The position numbers and the translations under genes were made by a program. From contig CALVKR010000002.1 of the NCBI GenBank assembly GCA_944332995.1, forward strand, positions 191,752-255,751: 64,000 bases of DNA. The letters run 5' to 3'. The DNA comes from an uncultured Clostridia bacterium. Its GTDB lineage: Bacteria > Bacillota > Clostridia > Christensenellales > CAG-917. The notes below the pieces were generated by a model that saw nothing but the letters and a program-made list of their open reading frames with translations, was not told where the DNA came from and made no database searches. Of the stretch, positions 22,863 to 35,172 are shown one piece after another (the stretch's first letter is position 1; each line of letters starts with the position of its first letter).

Positions 22863-22892
22863 AAAACCGACTGAGTTCAGTCGGTTTATTTT
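22862..22892. terminator. Bidirectional rho-independent terminator between convergent lgt and the protease gene
   Basis: 8-bp stem ACCGACTG/CAGTCGGT with loop AGTT, flanked by an A-run upstream and a T-run downstream. Confidence 0.75.
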
Positions 22893-23060: not shown

Positions 23061-23873
23061 TTACTCTGCAATTTCCTCTTTTGCTCTTTCCAAAAATTCC
23101 TTGACTGCTTCAAGCGGAATGGCGTAGTTTATACCCAACTTGCCGGAGTCTGCCACAACGACGCCCACGACCTTTCCGTCGTCGCCAATCAAAGGACCGC
23201 CGCTGTTGCCGGGCAGAGTGTTGGCTGTGATTACTATAAACTCCTCGTCGTTCACCTTTCTGAGTTCGTCGGATACAAGACCGTCGATAATGCAAAGCCC
23301 TTTACCTGCGCTGTTGCCGATGGCGTAGATATGCTCGCCTGTCCTCACCGCTTTATCAGAAAATTCGGCAGGTTTTAAATTTTCGGCTTCGATTTTAAGC
23401 AATGCCAAATCCTTTTTCGGGTCGGCGGTAACAAATTCAAGCGTATACATTTGCGATTGCTTATAAAACTTACAATATATGAAATTGGATATATTTTCTA
23501 TCTTTTTATCCGCCGATACCTTGCCCACGCAATGCAAATTTGTAAGAACGTATCCGTCCATACATATAAAACCGCTACCCGTCGAGATTTCGTCGCCGTA
23601 AGTAGCGCCCACGGTAACGACGCTGTCTCTGTTTTTGTCGAACACGTTTAAGTTTTCTTCTTTCTCAATTTCCACAACCGCCTTAGCCTTTTTAACCGCA
23701 GTTTTGGGTGCGTTTTTAAGATTAAAAACTCTCAGCTTAGATTCGCTGTTAAATTCCCCGAAACAGCTGCGGCATTGATAGCCGTAAAAAGTGTTGCCGT
23801 CCTTTTCGTATTCGACAAGCTCTACGATTTCCTCGCTTCCGCAAATTTCGCATTTATCGCATTTAAAAACCAT
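23061..23873 (-). CDS. Zn-ribbon + trypsin-like (S1/Trypsin_2) serine protease; last gene of the candidate system
   Basis: 270 aa. N-terminal CxxC...CxxC (KCDKCEICGS...YQCRSCFG). Catalytic triad candidates are LTNLHCV (His), KKDLALLKI (Asp) and GNSGGPL (Ser). No PDZ domain and no signal peptide. Confidence 0.8.
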   Translation of the reverse strand: MVFKCDKCEICGSEEIVELVEYEKDGNTFYGYQCRSCFGEFNSESKLRVFNLKNAPKTAVKKAKAVVEIEKEENLNVFDKNRDSVVTVGATYGDEISTGSGFICMDGYVLTNLHCVGKVSADKKIENISNFIYCKFYKQSQMYTLEFVTADPKKDLALLKIEAENLKPAEFSDKAVRTGEHIYAIGNSAGKGLCIIDGLVSDELRKVNDEEFIVITANTLPGNSGGPLIGDDGKVVGVVVADSGKLGINYAIPLEAVKEFLERAKEEIAE

Positions 23874-23881
23874 AACTCCTC

Positions 23882-25033
23882 CTACTCGGCAATTTCTTCG
23901 CCGTTTCTGTAAGCCTCGAACTTGGCGAGCTCTTCCTCGGTTATTACGTTTCTCGTAGTCTTAATAGCTTTTTCAAGGTCTTTAAGCGTTATATTTTCCG
24001 CTTTTCCGCTCTTGACCGCTCTCTTATATGCTTCGAGCTTTACTTTTTCGCATATGGCGGTTATATCGCCTCCACCGAATCCCTTAAGCGACACGGCAAA
24101 CGCTTTTAAATCGACATCGTCGTCTTTAGGAAGATTTTTGAGCGCCTTGTTTACCATAAACTCGCGGGCGCCCTCGTCGGGCAGACCGACGTATATTTGT
24201 GTGTCGAAACGGCCGCCTCTGACCATTGCGCTGTCGATGACCCACGGACGGTTGGTAGCGGATATCAAAAGCAGCATTTTGTTTGTCTTAGACTTTTTAA
24301 AGCCGTCTACCTTGGTCAGAAAAGTAGCGACAAATCTTGCCATTTCTGCGTCGACGCCGCCCGAGCTATCCCCTCTTTTTGAAGCGACGGAATCGAATTC
24401 GTCGAAAAAGATTATTGCTCTTTCGTTTTTCTGCGCAGTTTCAAACAGAGCGTCAAGCTGCTTGGAGCTGTCGCCCATATATTTAGAAATGAGGTCCTGA
24501 CAGTTTACTGCAAAAAACTTTGCGTCAACCTCACCTGCTATCGCCCTTGCAATAAATGTTTTACCTGTTCCGGGAGGTCCGTAAAGCATTATCTTTCCGC
24601 CCGGTTTTATATTGTAGAGTTTGGCAAGTTCGGGATTCCCCAGAGGCGCCAACACCTTGAAACGTATCTGATCTTTTACGTCCTCGAGCCCTGCCACGTC
24701 TGCAAAGGTAACTTTGTTTTCATCGGTATCGACAGGCTGAAAGGTAGGCATTTCGTCGTCCTTTTTCTGCGCCTGTTTATTCTGTTCCGCGTCGGCTGTC
24801 CTGATGGGTTTTTTGCCGGAACAATGACTTCTTACAAAGTCGAGAATTTTTGAAGCAAGTTTATGATACTCGATTTTTACGTCGTTCGTAGTCGCTGTCG
24901 TCGATATATCGTCGGCAAGTTCAGCCGCTCTCAAAAATGCGTCTCTTGCTCCTAAAATATCACCGGCACCGTAAAGTTCTTTGCCCGTTGCGTAAAAACT
25001 TTTATATGCTTCCACTTTAGCCGAATTGTTCAT
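23882..25033 (-). CDS. AAA+ ATPase of the classical (Vps4/katanin/FtsH-like) clade with an MIT-like three-helix N-terminus
   Basis: 383 aa. Walker A GPPGTGKT, Walker B IIFFDEFD, second region of homology SATNRPWVIDSAMVRGGRFD. The first 80 or so aa are helical and MIT/TPR-like (GDILGARDAFLRAAELADDI). Confidence 0.8.
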   Translation of the reverse strand: MNNSAKVEAYKSFYATGKELYGAGDILGARDAFLRAAELADDISTTATTNDVKIEYHKLASKILDFVRSHCSGKKPIRTADAEQNKQAQKKDDEMPTFQPVDTDENKVTFADVAGLEDVKDQIRFKVLAPLGNPELAKLYNIKPGGKIMLYGPPGTGKTFIARAIAGEVDAKFFAVNCQDLISKYMGDSSKQLDALFETAQKNERAIIFFDEFDSVASKRGDSSGGVDAEMARFVATFLTKVDGFKKSKTNKMLLLISATNRPWVIDSAMVRGGRFDTQIYVGLPDEGAREFMVNKALKNLPKDDDVDLKAFAVSLKGFGGGDITAICEKVKLEAYKRAVKSGKAENITLKDLEKAIKTTRNVITEEELAKFEAYRNGEEIAE

Positions 25034-25149: not shown

Positions 25150-27951
25150 CTATCTTTTGAGCTTTAAACCTCTCGAGTTAAAATAATCGTCGATATCGAA
25201 ATGGTCGTCAAATTCAAACTCGTATCGCTCGTCGTCATCGTCGTCACGGTCGAGCCTTTTTTCGTTGAACTCAAAAATGTTTTCATACCTCGTTATTGCG
25301 GAAGGAAATATAACGAGCGCCAAAACGACAGCCATGAAAAATCCCACTGCGCTCGTGCCGCTTTCGCTTGCACGTATAATCTGCATTCTCGCATTTTTTA
25401 CACCGCCGAATTTTTCGTTTTTATATTGCTCGTTGACAACGTTAAGTTTATAATCTCTATACTTTTTAATCCTGAATCTTAACACGACCAAGGATATAAT
25501 AGACAAAACGGCAAATACGAGCATGAGCACGAAAGTTACGAATGCTCCGCCCAAAAATTTGTTTTGGGTTTCCGCCACTATCGTTACCACAAAACAGGCA
25601 ACAAACGCCATAAACAGCAACGTCGCCGTCAGTACGTAAGGAGCAATCGAAACCTTTTGCTTTTGCGATTCGTTTTTCGCTCTAGCCTCGTCCCACTTTT
25701 TTTGCACTTTATACAACGTCGAGCCCTTTTCAACGCCCGTGCCGTTAAGCGGAGGATTGTTATCTTTTCTGTTTTGCCCTTGATTTTGAGCCTGATAATT
25801 TTTAGCGTTTTTTACGATACGCATGCAATTTTGCGTTTGTCTGTCGTCTGCCACCGCAAGAAAGTTTACAAACTCGGGCATTGCGGATATATCCGCTCCG
25901 CTTCTCTCCAGCTCGCTGTCCGTGGAGGCTTTTGCCTTTGCCATGATAAGTTGCCAGAACACGTTCGGGTTTTCTTTATCGTATTCAAGCCTGAGTTTGA
26001 GATAATACACGGCAGAATCGAAAAATCCTGCTTTCATACAGGCGTCCGTCATTGCCGTTAGCTGTCCGTCGATTTCGCTTACGTCGGAGGGATAATATCT
26101 TATGACGTGATTGAAAGTTTCAACACAATTAGCCGTGACAGGCGCACTGTAAAGTGCGTCGAGGACGGCGGTTATCTCCCTTTGCTGCCCGACCTTGTCG
26201 AGAGATATCAAAAGCGCCTCGAACTCGTCGAATTTAAAACGGTTCGGCAATGCGATATCCCGGTCATATCTGACCTCGGACGGAGATATCGGGCTAAGCG
26301 ACGTTGTCCTGATAATTCCTCTTAATGCGTCGGTATAGCCTGCGTCGATTTTTAAAACTCTCGAAAAATACATCTTCGCAACGGAATACTGCTTTTTATA
26401 AAGCGCCGCCACGGCAAACTCGTATAAGTATCTAATGTGCAAATCGACGTCCGAGGAATCGACTGCGCATATAACTTTTTCAAATAGAGAAGGCGAAACC
26501 TTCATCGACACCGCTTTCATTATTTTTTCTACGTTTGCTTTTGAGTTTTCGTAAGAATACGGCAATATGGCATCAAGAAGCGAAAGTGCGTCCTTTTCGT
26601 TTACCTCGACAAGGTTTGCCGCCAAACCGTAAAAGATGTCGAGAGCGGAAACGGCAAAGTCCTTGCTTGCCTTCGATATAATTTCGTCCGCCATATCCGA
26701 TTCGGGAAACGCTTCCGACTTTATAAAATCGGAAACGCTCATACAGCGACGGTTGACAAACAGTTTATACATAAGTGCTTCCGCACTGTCAGGATTTGCC
26801 TTTAAAATCGAATCGAGCAAAGCTGACGCCTCGTCAAACAATCCGTTTTGCGCCATCGTCTTGACGACGGCAAGCTGTTTTTTCTCGGAAAGCGATAAAT
26901 CTATTCCTTTAAGATTGAGGCTTTTTTGCTCAAGCTGTTTTGTCGCAACCTCTTTCGCCCTTTTTAACACTCTGCCGGATTTAAGGCTGATTTTTTCAAT
27001 GCCGTTGCCTTCGGTGGAAGTCGTTTCCTCAAACACCTTTTCTATGTGCCTTAAAAGGTCGCCGAGAAAGGTTTTTTTGGAGCCGTCGAGGCATTGCCTG
27101 TTTTTAAGAGATGACGGCAAAAGGCTCGGGTCGAAATTTTCATATACCACAACAAGGCTTGCCGAATGTTTTTCACCCTCTGCCAACAGTTTGGCATAAC
27201 GGCGCCATTCGTTTTTCACCCACGCCGACGTGACGTAATCGGGATTTTGAGCGTAAACTATCATAACTCTCGCCGTTTTGATAGCGTTAAAAATATAAGG
27301 CTCGTATTGCTCGGCAATCTTATCTCTTAAACTTTCTCTCGAAAAGAATACTCTGTATCCTGCCTGAGTGAGGTATGTATAAAGATTCTGAGCCTCATAG
27401 CTGTCTTTGGTGCGCTCTATTCCCTTTTCCGAGTCGCTGTCTTTGTAACATATGAAAATATCGTAAGGTTTTTCCTTGCTCGCTTTAAAAAGCCATTCCG
27501 TGCGGATTTTTTCTATCTTTTCGCCCAAGCGGACGTAATTATCTTTAACCTCGCCGACGCTGTGCTCGATTGCGGCAAGATAATCTTTGTCCTGCAAAAA
27601 TGACGATTCGCTTATCCTGTGACAGGTGGGAACTTTTTTCGAGTCGACGTCGTCGACAAACAAAACTCCCGCCCTTGCCAAAGCCCTGCCCCAATAAGCC
27701 TCGTGGCAGTCGCTGTCGGCGGATATAACTCGGCTGAAAGATTCCTCGGCTTCTTCAAATTCGCCTTTTCTGAGGTCGTCGAAAGCGTTATACAGTATGA
27801 CCTCGTTTTGCGATTTTGCCGTCCTGCTTTCATATTTTGCGCCGCATGCAAGACACTCCAAAACGACCCCGTCGTCACGAAGGGGACCGCCGCATATTTT
27901 ACAAATAAGTTGTGTAAGTGTGTCTTTTTCCATATTCAATCGTTTAGGCAA
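25150..27951 (-). CDS. Zn-ribbon - TIR domain - helical (TPR-like) repeats - 3 TM - acidic tail protein
   Basis: 933 aa. CKICGG...CLACGAKY at the N-terminus. TIR-like block at aa ~161-300 (YDIFICYKDSD...GYRVFFSRESL...ARVMIVYAQNPDYVTSAWVKNEW). Three C-terminal TM helices, then the tail DRDDDDDERYEFEFDD. An alternative ATG start lies at 27933. Confidence 0.75.
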   Translation of the reverse strand: MPKRLNMEKDTLTQLICKICGGPLRDDGVVLECLACGAKYESRTAKSQNEVILYNAFDDLRKGEFEEAEESFSRVISADSDCHEAYWGRALARAGVLFVDDVDSKKVPTCHRISESSFLQDKDYLAAIEHSVGEVKDNYVRLGEKIEKIRTEWLFKASKEKPYDIFICYKDSDSEKGIERTKDSYEAQNLYTYLTQAGYRVFFSRESLRDKIAEQYEPYIFNAIKTARVMIVYAQNPDYVTSAWVKNEWRRYAKLLAEGEKHSASLVVVYENFDPSLLPSSLKNRQCLDGSKKTFLGDLLRHIEKVFEETTSTEGNGIEKISLKSGRVLKRAKEVATKQLEQKSLNLKGIDLSLSEKKQLAVVKTMAQNGLFDEASALLDSILKANPDSAEALMYKLFVNRRCMSVSDFIKSEAFPESDMADEIISKASKDFAVSALDIFYGLAANLVEVNEKDALSLLDAILPYSYENSKANVEKIMKAVSMKVSPSLFEKVICAVDSSDVDLHIRYLYEFAVAALYKKQYSVAKMYFSRVLKIDAGYTDALRGIIRTTSLSPISPSEVRYDRDIALPNRFKFDEFEALLISLDKVGQQREITAVLDALYSAPVTANCVETFNHVIRYYPSDVSEIDGQLTAMTDACMKAGFFDSAVYYLKLRLEYDKENPNVFWQLIMAKAKASTDSELERSGADISAMPEFVNFLAVADDRQTQNCMRIVKNAKNYQAQNQGQNRKDNNPPLNGTGVEKGSTLYKVQKKWDEARAKNESQKQKVSIAPYVLTATLLFMAFVACFVVTIVAETQNKFLGGAFVTFVLMLVFAVLSIISLVVLRFRIKKYRDYKLNVVNEQYKNEKFGGVKNARMQIIRASESGTSAVGFFMAVVLALVIFPSAITRYENIFEFNEKRLDRDDDDDERYEFEFDDHFDIDDYFNSRGLKLKR

Positions 27952-28120: not shown

Positions 28121-28717
28121 TCAGTCTAAAATTTTGTTTTTCTCTTTTGCTATCTCGTCCGCAAGGCTCATACCCGTGCTCTTGGGTGCGTTTGGCAAAG
28201 CCGCTCCGCTGAGTTTCGCTCTTGCGGCGTCTATCATGGGACGGACTGCCGATATCTCGTCGTTGCTTCTTGCCCTGTTGGCAGGATTGGACGACTTCAT
28301 GGCGCCCGCCATAGCCTTTTGAGAAATTTTTATGTTTCTCATATACTTGCTGATTTTGATGTTCGCCTTTTGAATTTTCTTGATATCCGGCATTTTGGCT
28401 TTATTGCCCGCCATTTTGTCGAGAGCGTTGATAGCCATTGCCATATTCTGAGCGATAGCGTTTGAAACGTTTATTATATCAAAATTCGCCTTTGTCTGCG
28501 TGAGCGAGCTGATAACGTCGTTAAGTTCGATAAGAGCGTTTACCGCCACGTCGTAGCTGCCCATATCGCCGTTTATTTCCGCCTGAGCGGCAATGTTGGC
28601 ATATTCCTGTCTTTTGGCGGTGAGCTCGTTTATCTGGTCGTTAAAAATCTGCATTTGCTCGTCGCGTTCCATTTGCGCTATAATTTCTTTTTCTTGTTTG
28701 GTTTTGTAGAAAGCCAT
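28121..28717 (-). CDS. ESCRT-III superfamily-like (Snf7/PspA-like) all-helical protein, candidate
   Basis: 198 aa, predicted long helical hairpin. The segment NFDIINVSNAIAQNMAMAINALDKMAGNKAKMPDIKKIQKANIKISKYM resembles the Snf7 alpha2-alpha4 core. The C-terminal LADEIAKEKNKIL is MIM-like. GGAGG RBS. Confidence 0.45.
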   Translation of the reverse strand: MAFYKTKQEKEIIAQMERDEQMQIFNDQINELTAKRQEYANIAAQAEINGDMGSYDVAVNALIELNDVISSLTQTKANFDIINVSNAIAQNMAMAINALDKMAGNKAKMPDIKKIQKANIKISKYMRNIKISQKAMAGAMKSSNPANRARSNDEISAVRPMIDAARAKLSGAALPNAPKSTGMSLADEIAKEKNKILD

Positions 28718-28733: not shown

Positions 28734-29741
28734 CTATTTTACGGTTGGCGTATCTTGATTTCCGACTTCTTCTTCATCCAAATCGGACATGCTCGATTGA
28801 GCTGCTTTTTGAGCGTTTCGTTTTGCGATAAGTTCCTGTTGATAGGCAACGGCTTCGCTCGTGGCGGCGTCGTCGACTTCGCCGAATCCGCTTATCTTTT
28901 GTTCGTTGGCTTCGATTTTAGGCACCATGGCTTTTAAATCTTCTTCCATTTTCTTGAGCGTGGTAACCGCCCTTTCCGGCTCGGCAATGACCTTTTTGAG
29001 GTCGTCCACTTTAAGATATGCCTTTGCCTTATTAAGTTCGGATACGGAAAACTCCGAAGCTATGATTTTTTCTCCCACCAAACTTGCTATCATATCGAGC
29101 AAATCGCTGCAAAAGCTGTAGTTGCGGTAAGTATTGTTGAGTGCGTTGAGCTTAACCTTGACCGCCTTGACTTTAGATACGAGATTGTTGAGTTTGCGGT
29201 CGTTTTTTTCGTCTATTATGGCGTCGTTCAATTCGTCGATATCTCTTTCGAGGTTCTGCATTTCCGCCTCGAGTCTCTTTTCGTTTGAAAGATATTCCGA
29301 TTGCACGTCCTTTAATTCCGAAAGTTTTTCTTCAAGTTTTCTTCTTACCGACGAGGTTTCTCTCTTTTGGAGTTCCTCGCCTGCAATGGACGAATCCACG
29401 TCGCCGTAGAGCACGCTTGACCATTTATCGATAGTATAGTCGAGGTCGTCCACCGACTGAATGAGCCTGCCGCTGAGATATGACTTCATTTGGTCTCTTA
29501 CGTCGTCAATTTGAATCAAAGCGGTATTATAAAAACATTCGATGTTTTCGTCGCCCGTACCCACGATTTCTTCAAAATTTTTGATAACGTCGTAAAGTTT
29601 TTTTCTTGCCTGCTGAACGGATTCACCGTTTAAATCTTTGTTGTATCTTCCCTTATCGATATCAAATATGACGCCCTGCAATTTTTTTGCGACCTCGTCG
29701 CGCATGGCGTTGTTTGCTTTTACTGACGGTTTATACTTCAT
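28734..29741 (-). CDS. Long coiled-coil protein (possible PspA/ESCRT-III-like or TelA-like), hypothetical
   Basis: 335 aa with heptad-rich E/K/L/N composition and an acidic C-terminus. Its start overlaps the SPFH gene stop by 11 nt, with a GGAGGGGG RBS inside the upstream gene. Confidence 0.4.
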   Translation of the reverse strand: MKYKPSVKANNAMRDEVAKKLQGVIFDIDKGRYNKDLNGESVQQARKKLYDVIKNFEEIVGTGDENIECFYNTALIQIDDVRDQMKSYLSGRLIQSVDDLDYTIDKWSSVLYGDVDSSIAGEELQKRETSSVRRKLEEKLSELKDVQSEYLSNEKRLEAEMQNLERDIDELNDAIIDEKNDRKLNNLVSKVKAVKVKLNALNNTYRNYSFCSDLLDMIASLVGEKIIASEFSVSELNKAKAYLKVDDLKKVIAEPERAVTTLKKMEEDLKAMVPKIEANEQKISGFGEVDDAATSEAVAYQQELIAKRNAQKAAQSSMSDLDEEEVGNQDTPTVK

Positions 29742-30408
29742 CGCTATCCCCCTCCGAATTGACGGCGTTTTTTATCATGAGCATATCTTCTTCCGGCACG
29801 AAAATTTTTGCCGTTAAAGTGTTTACCTCTATTCCCATGTCTTTTATCAATTCTTTTTCGTTTAACTGTTTTTTGATTGCCACAGATACTTCTTCCGTCT
29901 TGGCGGTAACCTCAAAAACGGAAACCGTCGTATCGGCAAAAAGAGTCGCCACTGCGTCGGAAGCCACCATCTGCATGCATGACAGCACTTTTTTCTTTAT
30001 ATCGTCAAGAGTGATAACTGTTCCGAATTTGAAGTTGTCGATAAATCTGCGGTCGTTTACCACCTCGAAGACACATTCTCCGTTGGCGCCCACTCTGTAT
30101 GCCTGTTTAAGTTTCGGGTTTTTGACCTGAATGTCGCCCACTCCCCAAAGAATTTTCGGGAATACCGTGCTGACAAACGCCACCCTAAGCTGTTTTTTAA
30201 GATAACTTCTGTCCTTTTTCAAAAGGTCGAAAACTCTTTCGTCGGCGCACTGCTTGACCACCGCTTCGATTTTTTCATCGATATACAGATAAGCCTTAAA
30301 CTGCCTCGGAACGGTTATATTTACGTCCTTGGTCAATTCGAGCGGTTCGCAAAACTGAACGATTAAGTTTTCGTCGGCATAAGGTTTCAATAATACTTTT
30401 TTCGACAT
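29731..30408 (-). CDS. SPFH/Band-7-like protein of the YdjI (COG4260) type
   Basis: 225 aa, colinear by eye with B. subtilis YdjI-type proteins (ITVPRQFKAYLYIDEKI.., ..WGVGDIQVKNP.., YRVGANGECVFEVVNDRRFIDNF, ITLDDIKKKV, GIEVNTLTAKIFVPEED). Confidence 0.55.
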   Translation of the reverse strand: MSKKVLLKPYADENLIVQFCEPLELTKDVNITVPRQFKAYLYIDEKIEAVVKQCADERVFDLLKKDRSYLKKQLRVAFVSTVFPKILWGVGDIQVKNPKLKQAYRVGANGECVFEVVNDRRFIDNFKFGTVITLDDIKKKVLSCMQMVASDAVATLFADTTVSVFEVTAKTEEVSVAIKKQLNEKELIKDMGIEVNTLTAKIFVPEEDMLMIKNAVNSEGDSDEV

Positions 30409-30414
30409 AACTTA

Positions 30415-30777
30415 CTACCTCTCCTTATTTTCGGTTGACTTGATCACCTGGCAAATCCTTTCAATCGTTTCGTCGTCGAGATTTTCTTTTGCAACGGCGT
30501 ATATGACCCTCCTGCGGTTCTCCTCGAGATTAGCAAAATCAAGACGCATATTTTCAAGCGAGGAAGCAAGCGCCTTTTTCATCTTTTCCTGTTCTTCAGG
30601 CGTAAGGTCGTAGTTTGCCAAAATTGCGTCCTTCAAATCGTCGGGAACGTTGCGTTTGCCGTTTTCGATTGCCGAAAGATATGACGCCGAAATCCCCAGT
30701 TTTTCCGCCATTTGCTTTGCGCTGTCGCCGCAGTTGATACGAATTATCCTGAGTGTTTTTCCAAATTCCGTTATCAT
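30415..30777 (-). CDS. XRE-family helix-turn-helix transcriptional regulator; first gene of the cluster
   Basis: 120 aa with an HTH_3 signature (FGKTLRIIRINCGDSAKQMAEKLGISASYLSAIENGKRNVP). AAAGGAGAA RBS. Confidence 0.85.
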   Translation of the reverse strand: MITEFGKTLRIIRINCGDSAKQMAEKLGISASYLSAIENGKRNVPDDLKDAILANYDLTPEEQEKMKKALASSLENMRLDFANLEENRRRVIYAVAKENLDDETIERICQVIKSTENKER

Positions 30778-30818: not shown

Positions 30819-30847
30819 ATTATAGCATTGAAAAATGAAATAGTCAA
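30819..30847 (-). promoter_or_regulatory. Near-consensus sigma-A promoter for the XRE-led operon
   Basis: Minus strand reads TTGACT, a 17-nt spacer, then TATAAT (-35 at 30842-30847, -10 at 30819-30824), about 40 nt upstream of the XRE ATG. Direct repeats TGTAAATTT x 2 lie just upstream at about 30861-30885. Confidence 0.65.
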
Positions 30848-31039: not shown

Positions 31040-31897
31040 TCAAAGCACGACTTTAATTTTGCTCGGCGAATTTTGAACGCTCACGATAAACTTTTCGCCG
31101 GGGTAGTATTTTTCGCCGTCAAGGCAAAACGGATAATTTTTATCCAACTCGACTTCGAGGTTTTTTACCGCTTTAAAAGTCATGTTTTTCGAACGGTATT
31201 CCTTTTTAAAACCTATAAAAAAGGCTCGAAATAGCGGAAAGAAAATTTTAAACTTTTTGAAATGCCCTTTAGGAGTTCTTATCGTAAGAAGGTGAAAAAG
31301 TCCGTCGTTAAACTTATACAACCGGTTGAAGCGGAATCCGAAACATCTTTGAGAATCAAGGCACATAATCAAAGAATAAACTCCCTCGTCCGTTTTTCCG
31401 TCTGCCACGAGTTTTGCTTTCATATCGTAAACTTTGTATTCTTTAAAAACTTTAAAAATATATGCAAGCCACTTAAAGCGTTTCTTGCTCTTGTTCGAGG
31501 TGGAATATCCGATAGGAGTAAACGAGCCGCTCGCAAAAACGTAGACGAACTGATGGGAATCCACCCTGCCTATCTCGGATATGGTAAGGTCACTGCCCTG
31601 TTTTTTCATGTGTCCGGAAAACTCGTTTAAAGTGCCGTAAGGGAAATACAGCACGTCGATGCCCGTTTTCGACGCAATGTTCAAAGCGTTGCTCAGCGTA
31701 CCGTCGCCTCCGCAAACGGCAACTGCGTCGCACTCGTCAAGCTCAAACGTGTCCTTTTCGTCGGCTATCATAATAACTTCCGTCACCGTATATTCTTCGT
31801 CGGGAAACCTGTGTTTGAGCTTATCCAAAATGATTTTGTCATAGGCTTTTTCTCCGTTTCCGCTCAGTTTATTGATGACGATCTTCAATCTTTTCAT
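31040..31897 (-). CDS. Diacylglycerol/lipid kinase family protein (YegS/BmrU-like)
   Basis: 285 aa with the GGDGT motif (VAVCGGDGTLSNALN) and a DAGK catalytic-domain layout. Confidence 0.75.
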   Translation of the reverse strand: MKRLKIVINKLSGNGEKAYDKIILDKLKHRFPDEEYTVTEVIMIADEKDTFELDECDAVAVCGGDGTLSNALNIASKTGIDVLYFPYGTLNEFSGHMKKQGSDLTISEIGRVDSHQFVYVFASGSFTPIGYSTSNKSKKRFKWLAYIFKVFKEYKVYDMKAKLVADGKTDEGVYSLIMCLDSQRCFGFRFNRLYKFNDGLFHLLTIRTPKGHFKKFKIFFPLFRAFFIGFKKEYRSKNMTFKAVKNLEVELDKNYPFCLDGEKYYPGEKFIVSVQNSPSKIKVVL

Positions 31898-32370: not shown

Positions 32371-32898
32371 ACCACATAGGTGGCATATAATAGGAAAACT
32401 ATTTAACCTGCCTACGCACACATCTTATTTTTTAAAACTTAAAATTAAATTAAAAACAAATTTAATTTTAAAAATTTTTTTTTAATTCGCATTTATTTCG
32501 CATTTTTTTCAAACCGACCCTCAAACCGCCACTAAAGTTTTAATTTTAGTGCCGCTCTTTAGTCTGTTGCGTTTCCCTTCTTTTCAATTTAATACGTTTT
32601 TAAGTTTTTCGGTTAAAATAAGGTTAAATAATAGCTATTATAAAAGAATTATCAAAATATTATCAAAAAAACGGTTTGATTAAACGCAGGCATTTTCATA
32701 TATTCGTTGTCTCCCTATTTAAGTTTTAAGCTGTTAATTTAAATCGAACGAAGTAAAAACGGTCCGTCGCAAGTTATCCGACGGCTAAAAATATAAAATT
32801 TATAGCTTTAATCGCTTTTAAGTGTTGCAACATTTATATTTTCGGTTAAAATTTAATTGGAGCGACGCATTGTCGCACTTAAAGGCAAAGGAGTAAAT

Positions 32899-33576
32899 AT
32901 GAGAGTTTTACTTATCGAAGACTCAACGAGTTTATCGCAAGCGTTGGTTGCGGTGCTCAAAAAGGAAAAATACGAGGTAGAAAACGTCTACGACGGCGAA
33001 AGCGGGCTCGAATTCGGGCTGAGCAACGTTTTTGACATTATCCTGCTTGACGTTATGCTTCCCGAGATGAGCGGTTTTGACGTTCTGAAAAAACTCAGAC
33101 AAAACAAGATAACAACCCCTATAATCATGCTTACCGCCCTGTCCGACGAGGCGAACAAAGTGCACGGGCTCGACTGCGGGGCGGACGACTATATCGCCAA
33201 ACCCTTTTCTATTCCCGAGCTTCTCGCAAGGATAAGAGCGCTGACGCGCCGCAAAAGCGACAGCTATCAGGGATTTATATCACACAACGGAGTCAACCTC
33301 GACGTCAACACCTACAAGGTGGAATACGACGGCAAAAGCGTAAAACTTTCGGTGAAGGAATTTGAGATTTTAAAGTATCTTTTTGAAAAAGGAAACGCCA
33401 TTGCCGATAAAGAAAATCTTATCGCAAAAGTGTGGGGATTCGACAGCGAATTTGAATCGAATACCCTTGAAGTTTTCATTTCCTTTCTAAGAAAGAAACT
33501 TGCGTTTTTAAACGCCCCCTTTACCATAAACGCAATAAGAGGCGTGGGCTATCAGCTCGAGGACAAAAAAGATTAA
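32899..33576 (+). CDS. OmpR/PhoB-family response regulator
   Basis: MRVLLIEDS receiver domain (D...LLDVMLP..., K at IAKPF) and a winged-helix C-terminus (IRGVGYQL). AGGAG RBS 7 nt before the ATG at 32899. Confidence 0.9.
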   Translation: MRVLLIEDSTSLSQALVAVLKKEKYEVENVYDGESGLEFGLSNVFDIILLDVMLPEMSGFDVLKKLRQNKITTPIIMLTALSDEANKVHGLDCGADDYIAKPFSIPELLARIRALTRRKSDSYQGFISHNGVNLDVNTYKVEYDGKSVKLSVKEFEILKYLFEKGNAIADKENLIAKVWGFDSEFESNTLEVFISFLRKKLAFLNAPFTINAIRGVGYQLEDKKD

Positions 33577-33714
33577 ACGCCTTACAGCTTGAATTTATTC
33601 GGACTTTAAATTTGCAACGGTAAAAATCAAAACGGCAAACAGCCAAACCGCAAAAATAAAGCGTCAAATTTAAAACGCTTTAAATGCAAAAGCAATCGTC
33701 AATCGGAACGGAAT

Positions 33715-35172
33715 ATGAAAATAAGCGTCAACACGTCATCTAAAAAGGAATTGTTTAACGACCTTAAAATAAAATTTATGTTGCTTGCGTCTGTTATCGG
33801 CACGGCGATTCTTTTGATTATTTTCATAGCGATTTTTTCGGCTCAATACGGCGATATGCAACTGAGCATAAAAGACAGCCTTTTTACAACCATAGAAGAT
33901 TTTAAAAGCAACAGCGGTGCGGGCTCGGAATTCAACGACTTCGATACCAGAAACCACTGTATTTTGCTTGTGGAAAGAAACGGAGTGATAGTAATAAAAC
34001 AACACTTCGACGGATATACGCAAACGGAACAATCGCAGATAATCAACGTCGTGACGAACACGGATAAAACTAAAGTTACGATAGGTAAAAGACACTTTCA
34101 GATTTTAAAAGCAAGCAGTTCAAACTTCGTATTTGACGAAACGGTATACGCAATTTACGACTATACTATGGAATACAACTCGATAATGGTTATGATTATC
34201 GCCTTTTCCTGTTCGATAATTCTGTCGGCGTGGCTGTTTTCTCTTATCGGCTGGTTGTTTGCAAAACACGCCGTCAAACCGGTCGAATACGCATTTCACA
34301 ACCAAAAGGAGCTCGTCACAAACGTATCTCACGAGCTCAAAACGCCGCTTACCGTTTTGGCGACAAATATAAATCTCGCAAAAGGCTCGCTGACCGCAAA
34401 AAACGCAGAAGCGAAAAGCTGGCTCGACAGTTCCGCCGCTCAGATAGAAAAAATGAACAAACTTATTCTTGAAATGCTCGAGCTGTCAAAATTTACAAGC
34501 GTGTTTTACAACCCCAATTTGGAAAAAATCAACCTGAGCGACTTTTTGGAAAGCACCCTGCTTTCCTTTGAAGCCACCTGCTATTATAAAAAAATCACGC
34601 TTGAAACGAAAATCGAAAAAGACGTGTGGTGCTATGTCGATAAAAATTCGCTCGAAAGGCTTCTTTCCATTCTCTGTGACAACGCCATTAAATATACACC
34701 CGAAGACGGCAAGATAAGAGCGGGGCTCGTCAAACAAAAAAAGAAAGTTGTCATCACCGTATCCAACACGGGCAAAGGCATATCGGAAGAAAATCTCAAA
34801 CACATATTTGAAAGATTTTACAAAGTGTCCACCGACGTGGAACAGTCAAAGAGTTTCGGGCTAGGACTTTCCATAGCGAGGTCTATAGCGCAATCTATGG
34901 GCGGCGAGATAAGCTGCGAAAGCGAAACGGATAAATATACCGCCTTTATCGTTTCGTTGCCTTTGGAAAGAAAGAAAACTGAGGCCTACGCAAATCAAAA
35001 ACGGCAGTTAAAGCAAAACGTCGACGAACAGTCTGACGATATGAAATCGCAGACGGACGCAGGACGCAAAAAATCACTTTTTAAAAGTAAATCCTCAAAA
35101 AAACAAGAGAGCAAAAACGGCTCGACTGAAACGGATACGACGCAGAAAAATGACGACGAGCGGCAGGATTAA
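33715..35172 (+). CDS. Sensor histidine kinase (HisKA + HATPase_c), two TM segments
   Basis: H-box SHELKTPLT, N-box DNAIKYT, and G-boxes NTGKGI / GLGLSIARS. K/S/D-rich C-terminal tail. Confidence 0.9.
   Translation: MKISVNTSSKKELFNDLKIKFMLLASVIGTAILLIIFIAIFSAQYGDMQLSIKDSLFTTIEDFKSNSGAGSEFNDFDTRNHCILLVERNGVIVIKQHFDGYTQTEQSQIINVVTNTDKTKVTIGKRHFQILKASSSNFVFDETVYAIYDYTMEYNSIMVMIIAFSCSIILSAWLFSLIGWLFAKHAVKPVEYAFHNQKELVTNVSHELKTPLTVLATNINLAKGSLTAKNAEAKSWLDSSAAQIEKMNKLILEMLELSKFTSVFYNPNLEKINLSDFLESTLLSFEATCYYKKITLETKIEKDVWCYVDKNSLERLLSILCDNAIKYTPEDGKIRAGLVKQKKKVVITVSNTGKGISEENLKHIFERFYKVSTDVEQSKSFGLGLSIARSIAQSMGGEISCESETDKYTAFIVSLPLERKKTEAYANQKRQLKQNVDEQSDDMKSQTDAGRKKSLFKSKSSKKQESKNGSTETDTTQKNDDERQD

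Follow-up and report, generated by a model that had tools for sequence, protein, structure and literature searches.

How is a bacterial ATPase built like Vps4 related to Vps4 itself, and what would it act on? The question is raised by a gene in a 64,000-nucleotide stretch of DNA from an uncultured Clostridia bacterium (assembly GCA_944332995.1, contig CALVKR010000002.1, positions 191,752 to 255,751; hereafter the window, with positions counted from its first letter). The gene encodes a protein in which a three-helix, MIT-like N-terminal domain is joined by a charged linker to a single AAA cassette, and it belongs to a conserved cassette of seven genes that also encodes an SPFH protein, two helical proteins, a TIR membrane protein and a trypsin-like protease. 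Sequence comparisons indicate that the ATPase is Vps4-like in architecture and a member of a distinct bacterial clade of MIT-like AAA proteins. We tentatively favour a function as the Vps4-analogous disassemblase or unfoldase of a membrane assembly built by the cassette, coupled to the protease.

An ATPase with Vps4-like architecture

The gene and the parts of its product lie at the following positions.

23882-25033, minus strand: MIT-like AAA ATPase gene, an open reading frame of 383 amino acids with an ATG start and Pfam matches to AAA, AAA_lid_3 and, weakly, Vps4_C
24818-25033, minus strand: three-helix MIT-like domain, residues 1-72, with helices at 4-22, 26-46 and 50-71 in an AlphaFold2 model
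24713-24817, minus strand: charged low-complexity linker, residues 73-107, varying in length and sequence across homologues
24158-24712, minus strand: AAA large subdomain (PF00004) with Walker A, pore loop 1, Walker B, sensor-1 and arginine fingers
23885-24157, minus strand: lid subdomain (about residues 293-352, with AAA_lid_3 at 306-348) and C-terminal helix (about 360-376, ITEEELAKFEAYRNG)

The original prediction, made from the letters alone, had described a single AAA cassette arranged as in Vps4, with an MIT domain and a linker ahead of it. All of the motifs that it quoted (GPPGTGKT, IIFFDEFD, SATNRPWVIDSAMVRGGRFD and KYMGDSSKQLDALF) are found in the 383-amino-acid translation of the open-reading-frame listing, as are its three N-terminal helical stretches and charged linker, and the Pfam scan returns one PF00004 match, at residues 148-284 (E = 1e-38). 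The predicted order of parts is thus borne out, with a three-helix, MIT-like N-terminal domain (N-domain) leading through the charged linker to one AAA cassette of the classical clade. The translation and the Pfam scan reveal no transmembrane or hydrophobic segment and no peptidase domain, M41 included, in agreement with the claim that the protein is not FtsH.

Within the large subdomain, GPPGTGKT, the pore loop 1 SKYMGDSSK, IIFFDEFD, N261 (in SATN) and R272/R275 (in VRGGRFD) are all intact. The catalytic and pore-loop motifs are invariant in an alignment of 16 homologues, and N261 is conserved in at least 90% of them. At E ≤ 1e-20 the ATPase is matched by 2,998 proteins, the best 120 of which are 68-96% identical over nearly their full length; the few named ones among these 120 come from Christensenellales, Clostridiales or Eubacteriales metagenome-assembled genomes (MAGs). 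With so many relatives, and with those listed being near-full-length, the reading frame is not a chance one. At residues 346-376 the protein scores 19.0 bits against Vps4_C (PF09336; cutoff 21.3), and two relatives reach 21.5 bits (P0143) and 37.8 bits (P0128). A helix of this type is not diagnostic, because p97 D2 carries a comparable one.

An AlphaFold2 model of residues 1-78, computed with nine homologues, has a predicted local distance difference test score (pLDDT) of 88, and in the 16-homologue alignment three conserved helical blocks precede the variable-length linker. When the model was compared with the whole PDB using Foldseek, MIT domains filled eight of the ten top places (VPS4A twice, SKD1/VPS4B, VPS4B-IST1, NRBF2, MITD1 twice and archaeal Vps4 2w2u). 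The best-fitting MIT domain stands lower in the list and is that of Sulfolobus solfataricus Vps4 (2v6y; template-modelling score (TM-score) 0.83/0.86, root mean square deviation 1.6 Å, 74 columns); the MIT domain of calpain-7 has a TM-score of 0.83. None of nine N-domains matches the Pfam MIT model (PF04212) at E ≤ 10. The claim of an MIT-like N terminus therefore stands as to fold and fails as to sequence. The most conserved residues (A29, L34, A36, A37, A40, E55, Y56 and A60) lie on helices 2 and 3. In Vps4, helices 2 and 3 of the MIT domain are the place at which MIM1 peptides (a class of MIT-interacting motif) bind, and by analogy the conservation seen here may be tied to binding of that type.

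A distinct bacterial clade of AAA modules

One way to account for this architecture is descent, with the protein a genuine archaea-derived Vps4/CdvC orthologue that works with a true Snf7-family subunit in a canonical ESCRT-III/Vps4 scission machine. The N-domain has TM-scores of 0.80-0.86 to the MIT domain of Sulfolobus Vps4, SKYMGDSSK and NRPWVIDSA resemble SKWLGESEK and NIPWVLDSA of VPS4B (an SK[YW]xG pore loop and an NRPW..DSA motif), and the weak Vps4_C match points the same way. A survey of phage-shock-protein systems has also reported that VPS4-like ATPases were transferred to some bacteria together with a TPR and transmembrane protein (PMC11237479); its example, ACB74714.1, may belong to the clade described below.

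The AAA module argues against orthology. Its arginine-finger second region of homology (SRH) reads MVRGGRFD, which is of the Cdc48/PAN/FtsH type (RPGRFD in the Cdc48, PAN and FtsH sequences taken from loci), whereas VPS4B has RRRF, spastin LRRF and katanin RRRL. It has no beta-domain: in a direct comparison, the start of the lid is separated from the C-terminal helix by about 70 residues, compared with about 115 in VPS4B. The reference sequences used for VPS4B, spastin, katanin and CHMP3 proved nearly identical to PDB entries (993, 633, 678 and 429 bits, respectively); two loci considered as sources of CdvB/CdvC references (L043 and L075; the prefixes L and P denote loci and proteins) proved to be Cdc48 loci. 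The closest PDB matches to the module, scored per domain, are D1 (166 bits) and D2 (173 bits) of p97/Cdc48. Among NCBIfam models the order is PAN (209 bits), CDC48 (201), FtsH (193), CdvC (170.5) and IteA (128; 127.7 before rounding), all far under the respective cutoffs (650 for CdvC, 600 for FtsH_fam and 510 for IteA).

A hidden Markov model (HMM) built from the AAA modules of the family scores highest, outside the family, on bacterial MIT-like AAA proteins of Phycisphaerae and Chloroflexota (236-255 bits) and on the second cassette of a clostridial two-AAA protein (227 bits). Lower scores are obtained by Cdc48 D1/D2 (144-212), PAN (196-198), FtsH (184), katanin (183), VPS4B (165) and spastin (153); VPS4B thus falls below the 196-212 bits of PAN and Cdc48 D1. 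In a rough neighbour-joining tree (36 sequences, 242 columns, 200 bootstraps), the ATPase family is recovered with 98% bootstrap support and its union with the other bacterial MIT-like AAA proteins with 72%. This bacterial clade adjoins Vps4, spastin and katanin, as orthology would predict, with a bootstrap value of only 48%. On the basis of its motifs, HMM scores and tree position, the ATPase belongs to a distinct bacterial clade and is not a Vps4/CdvC orthologue; its module lies outside the meiotic clade of Vps4, katanin and spastin. Its small helical neighbour, considered below, matches neither Snf7 nor PspA, and we regard a canonical scission machine of archaeal origin as improbable.

Membership of the FtsH, PAN and Cdc48 families was rejected on architecture and on the scores under the family cutoffs. 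Membership of IetA was rejected as well (146 bits on the PADLOC IetA model; 127.7 on NCBIfam IteA). Archaeal PAN obtains 163 bits and human VPS4B 113 on the same PADLOC model, and because PAN outscores the ATPase, the IetA match is generic.

Relatives with other architectures were also found. MORN-fused AAA proteins with long MORN-repeat N-terminal regions (P0135, P0139 and P0141; L089, 10001-13885) have modules that nest within the ATPase family in the tree. Tandem two-cassette relatives include P0128 (704 amino acids, with the module duplicated) and a 696-amino-acid protein of a Clostridia MAG (L010, 7272-9359) in which an MIT-like N terminus is followed by a SpoVK/CbbX-like cassette and then by a cassette that groups with the second cassette of P0128 (100% bootstrap). 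Multi-cassette AAA proteins dominate the top of the representative-library search, and a profile search of contigs with the full-length alignment returned mostly generic AAA genes, L006-L010 alone being informative.

A conserved seven-gene cassette

Seven co-directional genes encode, in order, a helix-turn-helix (HTH) regulator, an SPFH protein, a 335-amino-acid protein, a 198-amino-acid protein, the TIR protein, the ATPase and a zinc-ribbon trypsin-like protease.

30819-30847, minus strand: promoter-like site TTGACT-17-TATAAT with a TG extension (11/12 positions, a consensus match only), upstream of the HTH gene
30415-30777, minus strand: XRE-type HTH regulator, 120 amino acids, first gene of the cassette (HTH_31/HTH_3; PADLOC capH-like, E = 2e-5)
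29731-30408, minus strand: SPFH/Band_7_1 (YdjI-type) protein, 225 amino acids (PF13421, E = 2.5e-7, over the gathering score)
28734-29741, minus strand: coiled-coil protein, 335 amino acids, from the open-reading-frame listing; fast-evolving
28121-28717, minus strand: all-helical protein, 198 amino acids, a candidate ESCRT-III-like subunit (AlphaFold2, Foldseek and hhalign)
28124-28171, minus strand: C-terminal amphipathic helix of the 198-amino-acid protein (SLADEIAKEKNKILD), a candidate MIT-interacting motif
25150-27951, minus strand: protein of 933 amino acids with zinc ribbon, TPR, TIR, TPR and three transmembrane helices (TIR_2, E = 1e-10; TPR matches; transmembrane scan)
23874-23881, minus strand: 8-nucleotide gap GAGGAGTT, with a Shine-Dalgarno sequence overlapping the stop codon of the ATPase gene
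23061-23873, minus strand: zinc-ribbon and HtrA-like trypsin serine protease, 270 amino acids (Trypsin_2, E = 2e-24; Do-family, 102 bits)
22864-22887, minus strand: past the protease gene, a strong intrinsic-terminator-like hairpin (10-base-pair stem, then a T run)

From the promoter-like site to the terminator-like hairpin, the seven genes are predicted to form one transcription unit. The PF13421 match of the SPFH protein is seen also in its counterparts in L003 and L090. The 335-amino-acid coiled coil is only 31-42% identical between cassettes and has no family or PDB match in Pfam and PDB profile searches. In the 933-amino-acid protein, the TIR domain (27076-27459) and the transmembrane helices (25294-25635) are followed by an acidic C-terminal tail; a WVKNEW motif supplies a candidate catalytic Glu for the TIR domain. 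The protease retains His, Asp and Ser motifs (LHCVG, DLALL and GNSGGP).

The cassette recurs in at least five lineages in which the ATPase or the 198-amino-acid protein is 69-85% identical to that of the window. The same gene set surrounds ATPases of 74% (L001/L002) and 69% (L003) identity and homologues of the 198-amino-acid protein of 85% (L090-L092) and 71% (L093/L094) identity. In L003 the ATPase gene precedes the TIR gene, which sits between it and the protease gene, and L093/L094 contain extra small genes. Because the set is kept while its order changes, the genes are probably linked in function. This bears on the possibility that the ATPase serves protein quality control in general, as a Cdc48/PAN-like unfoldase; none of its neighbours would then be a specific partner, and its operon position would reflect co-regulation only. 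PAN and CDC48 models do score highest, and MORN-fused relatives occur alone among housekeeping genes; however, wherever the flanks suffice, the MIT-bearing form is always accompanied by cassette genes (L001-L003, L093 and L090-L092, the last with a 385-amino-acid ATPase), the altered order in L003 preserves the set, and the protein has neither the coiled coil-OB N-domain of PAN nor the double-psi-barrel N-domain of Cdc48. We consider such a role very improbable.

The TIR protein varies in size, from 933 to more than 4,000 amino acids across cassettes. Its versions share a cytoplasmic module of zinc ribbon, TPR, TIR and, in some, a further TPR region, followed by an odd number of transmembrane helices, and most relatives add a large LRR_5/Flg_new ectodomain (lengths of 1021 to more than 4,000 amino acids). 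The genes of relatives lie at L001 6872-9937, L003 11149-15591, L090 10850-14362, L093 10612-17979, L094 11450-19969 and L006 341-9997. In Firmicutes these relatives are predicted to have a Toll-like-receptor topology, with leucine-rich repeats outside and TIR inside. The protein in the window has no ectodomain; its last 47 residues form an acidic tail with a predicted position outside the cell. The tail had been suggested as a partner of the ATPase; because it is lineage-specific and predicted to be extracellular, it is unlikely to be a conserved target.

A possible ATPase-protease pair

A protease gene 8 nucleotides after the ATPase gene, coupled to it in translation, was part of the original prediction. 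The zinc-ribbon and Trypsin_2 reading frame does begin exactly 8 nucleotides past the stop codon, and the junction reads TAG-GAGGAGTT-ATG, with a GGAGG Shine-Dalgarno sequence overlapping the stop. The two genes are adjacent in L001, L002, L004, L005 and L090-L092 too. Coupling is thus supported by the spacing in the window, but across loci the pairing is common without being obligatory: the genes are separated in L003, L006 (Borkfalkia) has no trypsin gene downstream, and L087, with a 51%-identical relative, has a coiled-coil gene, a 200-amino-acid helical protein and a zinc-ribbon Sel1-repeat protein and neither TIR nor trypsin.

This junction bears directly on a rival explanation, in which ATPase and trypsin-like protease are the two components of an ATP-dependent protease, IetAS- or Lon-like in logic, that controls the TIR protein or the HTH regulator by regulated proteolysis. 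The N-domain would then be a generic TPR-like substrate adaptor, and the helical proteins would have no relation to ESCRT-III and serve as scaffolds or sensors. Beyond the spacing and the recurrent adjacency, this explanation can draw on IetA as the best PADLOC match of the ATPase (146 bits), on the resemblance of the trypsin to defence-associated RT-Protease and Avs1b domains in PADLOC, on matches of N-domain helices 1 and 2 to TPR models and on the mobile-element genes that adjoin some copies of the cassette. The IetA match is generic, however, with PAN at 163 bits, VPS4B at 113 and IteA at 128 against a cutoff of 510, and with the protease missing or separated in L003, L006 and L087 the pair is not an invariant core. 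HtrA-type proteases are self-compartmentalizing, and we know of none that docks on AAA rings. The explanation also leaves the tight conservation of the 198-amino-acid, 335-amino-acid and SPFH genes with the ATPase unaccounted for. We regard it as possible but, on balance, unlikely.

Surroundings and distribution of the cassette

In the window, the cassette lies among housekeeping genes (gyrB/gyrA, murG-like and lgt-like). Directly upstream is a DAGK_cat gene with its own promoter-like site (31040-31897, minus strand), and beyond it, judged by eye from the translations, are OmpR-type response regulator-like and histidine kinase-like genes (32857-35172, plus strand); no sign of a link between these genes and the cassette was seen. 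Elsewhere, an extra gene of 170-205 amino acids follows the protease gene (L001 11961-12530, L004 11993-12607 and L003 16837-17355, with a zinc-ribbon-like motif); the window has no such gene, the terminator-like hairpin coming directly after the protease.

In L004/L005, a Peptidase_M78 and HTH pair in CapP/CapH-like order lies just downstream of the ATPase-trypsin genes (L004 12659-13636). By analogy, the CapH-like HTH protein and the Peptidase_M78/HTH pair hint at damage-responsive transcriptional control. Mobile-element genes adjoin several copies (L004 13900-20200, L093 1-6800 and L094 46-2013), and comprise integrase, resolvase/recombinase, PemK toxin, TraG-like ATPase, Y-family polymerase and LexA-like repressor genes. 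Searches of phage, plasmid and IMG/VR collections found no match to the 198-amino-acid protein. The cassette is abundant in gut metagenomes; one variant of the 198-amino-acid protein alone is indexed in 100 assembly-collection blocks.

A candidate ESCRT-III-like partner

The 198-amino-acid protein is conserved to the same degree as the ATPase (66-86% identity across cassettes). Its AlphaFold2 model has helices at 7-49, 52-102, 112-142, 152-170 and 185-197, in the order found in ESCRT-III: the first two pair as a long hairpin, two shorter ones follow, and the last comes after a Pro/Ala-rich linker. In Foldseek, the matches of highest probability and TM-score are CHMP2A-CHMP3 (probability 0.85; TM-score 0.40/0.48), CdvB2 (up to 0.82; 0.43-0.47) and CdvB (0.72), whereas the nominal top matches are 14-3-3 proteins with a TM-score of 0.17. 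Profile alignment with hhalign places the hairpin in register with that of CHMP3, with the G-D at the tip matched (P = 0.044), and with that of a 37-sequence bacterial Snf7-like family (P = 0.065). None of the hhalign comparisons made (with the 335-amino-acid family, the L008 proteins, the L087 neighbours, CHMP3 and the bacterial Snf7 alignment) was significant. In the terminal helix (..SLADEIAKEKNKIL), E188, I189, E192 and K193 do not vary among 15 homologues, and the 200-amino-acid neighbour in L087, which looks unrelated, has DAIAEKMQKI as a comparable terminal helix. The description 'ESCRT-III-like' is plausible and unproven.

The nearest outgroup ATPases supply context. In two Chloroflexota MAGs (L008 and L009), they lie beside or near members of a family of about 200 amino acids. 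The L008 member matches Snf7 (PF03357) with E = 2e-4 and 21.4 bits, under the gathering score; many members of the family carry precomputed PF03357 matches, and among natural PDB entries IST1 and CdvB match the family best. L008 (1384-7936) contains two MIT-like AAA genes, a Snf7-like gene of 219 amino acids, a second helical protein and a PQQ-propeller/TPR/zinc-ribbon protein; for one of the AAA proteins, whose SRH is of the LSRF type, CdvC is the best-scoring model, and the other is the closest outgroup of the window family. In L009 (192-5507), the pairing of Snf7-like and MIT-like AAA genes is repeated. As judged by family matches, there are bacteria in which the gene for an MIT-like AAA ATPase has a Snf7-family gene as its neighbour, whereas for bacteria in general the literature says otherwise (PMC7619361, PMC10936438). 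That these outgroup ATPases lie near Snf7-like genes counts in favour of the Vps4-analogous reading of the ATPase. SPFH/Band_7_1 proteins are known as partners of ESCRT-III-superfamily proteins, in YdjI-PspA and in archaeal ESCRT loci (PMC10936438, PMC11237479).

Proposed function

If the Vps4-analogous reading is right, the ATPase would assemble as a hexamer and unfold proteins in the manner of Vps4, as a classical-clade AAA+ enzyme that is no Vps4 orthologue. Its MIT-like domain would dock on a short conserved helix of a partner, for which the C-terminal helix of the 198-amino-acid protein is the best candidate, and the ring would thread and extract subunits by means of its KYMG pore loop. 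Extraction would take apart, or govern the turnover of, an assembly close to the membrane in which the 198-amino-acid, 335-amino-acid and SPFH proteins surround the zinc-ribbon-TPR-TIR protein. The translationally coupled HtrA-like protease would then act on polypeptides that have been pulled out or uncovered, by degradation or by a cut that activates a partner. The analysis shows the domain architecture, the intact catalytic motifs and the operon with its conservation, from which we infer the contact between MIT-like domain and helix, polymerization of the ESCRT-III type and the direction of regulation; the biological role may be envelope surveillance or anti-phage conflict with TIR as the output.

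A bolder version makes the cassette a genuine bacterial ESCRT-type machine, in which a polymerizing ESCRT-III-like subunit, an SPFH scaffold and an MIT-bearing, Vps4-analogous ATPase are wired to a Toll-like-receptor-style protein and a protease as an envelope-surveillance or immune module of gut Firmicutes. We hold this stronger claim to be doubtful.

Several observations weigh against a Vps4-like role. The Foldseek E values of the N-domain are 0.07-0.6, as any small helical bundle would give, so the MIT assignment is an argument from ranking and not from significance; ribosomal protein S20 and FliS are also among the matches. Helices 1 and 2 weakly match TPR models in Pfam (E ≤ 10) and in the PDB profile search. 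MIT domains are TPR-like, and this signal is compatible with an MIT domain without being diagnostic. The AAA module lacks hallmarks of the Vps4 clade. Where modules of about 60% identity are fused to MORN repeats, these repeats take the position of the N-domain, and one such protein (P0139) is encoded on its own between seryl-tRNA synthetase and phosphoribosyltransferase genes. For the 198-amino-acid protein, the model has a pLDDT of only 64, all Foldseek matches are non-significant (E ≥ 0.2, TM-scores of 0.40-0.48), the hhalign probabilities are about 1%, Pfam, NCBIfam, PADLOC and PDB profile searches give no significant match to Snf7 or PspA, for it or for the 335-amino-acid protein, and its charges are distributed the opposite way from those of eukaryotic ESCRT-III, the hairpin being acidic and alpha4-5 basic.

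Full-text searches of the literature found no description of the cassette, and the phrase 'bacterial Vps4' is absent from the full texts searched, from papers dated 2021 or later. The cassette as a whole appears to be undescribed. It gives a hint that bacteria possess an ESCRT-like membrane system not described before, and its combination of MIT-like AAA, SPFH and ESCRT-III-shaped proteins makes ATP-driven, ESCRT-like remodelling in bacteria directly testable. That this machinery is joined to a TIR receptor-like protein and a protease suggests that, in the conflict or stress systems of prokaryotes, membrane remodelling and TIR signalling are connected in a way yet to be explored. The L008/L009 type looks like a bacterial locus that unites Snf7 and Vps4-like genes, a kind that reviews say should not exist.

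Comparison with known systems

Vps4/CdvC systems share with the ATPase a three-helix MIT-like N-domain, a charged linker, a single classical AAA cassette, an SK[WY]xG pore loop 1, an NxPW..DSA motif and, as a non-diagnostic feature, a C-terminal helix past the lid, and with the cassette a small helical neighbour that has an ESCRT-III-like helix order and a conserved C-terminal helix. They differ in the SRH (RR(R)F rather than VRGGRFD), in the beta-domain (a feature of eukaryotic Vps4) and in an MIT domain that Pfam does not detect here; the cassette also carries TIR, trypsin and SPFH genes, and homology of its 198-amino-acid protein to ESCRT-III is unproven.

The bacterial MIT-like AAA proteins of Chloroflexota and Phycisphaerae (L007-L009) have the same architecture and an RPGR-type SRH but are only 34-35% identical to the ATPase. 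The Chloroflexota loci have a Snf7 gene detected by Pfam and neither TIR nor trypsin, whereas the cassette has an unclassifiable 198-amino-acid protein in its place. The transferred bacterial VPS4-like ATPases of the phage-shock-protein survey resemble the cassette in their association with a TPR and transmembrane protein (PMC11237479).

In IetAS, as in the cassette, a classical AAA gene is directly followed by a serine protease gene, and IetA is the best PADLOC match. IetS is a subtilase, whereas the protease here is of the trypsin/HtrA type, and IetAS has neither the MIT-like domain nor the other five genes. Cdc48/p97 and PAN give the top sequence scores for the AAA module and share its SRH type; Cdc48 differs in having two cassettes and a double-psi-barrel N-domain, and PAN in its coiled-coil/OB N-domain, with no proteasome context evident here.

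The PspA-YdjI modules of Firmicutes likewise combine a Band_7_1 SPFH protein, a helical protein of the ESCRT-III superfamily (or, in the cassette, one resembling it) and zinc-ribbon proteins, with action predicted close to the membrane. No cassette protein matches PspA_IM30, and TIR and trypsin are new to the PspA context. The PspA modules described so far are without a Vps4-like ATPase (PMC7619361), the component that the cassette carries.

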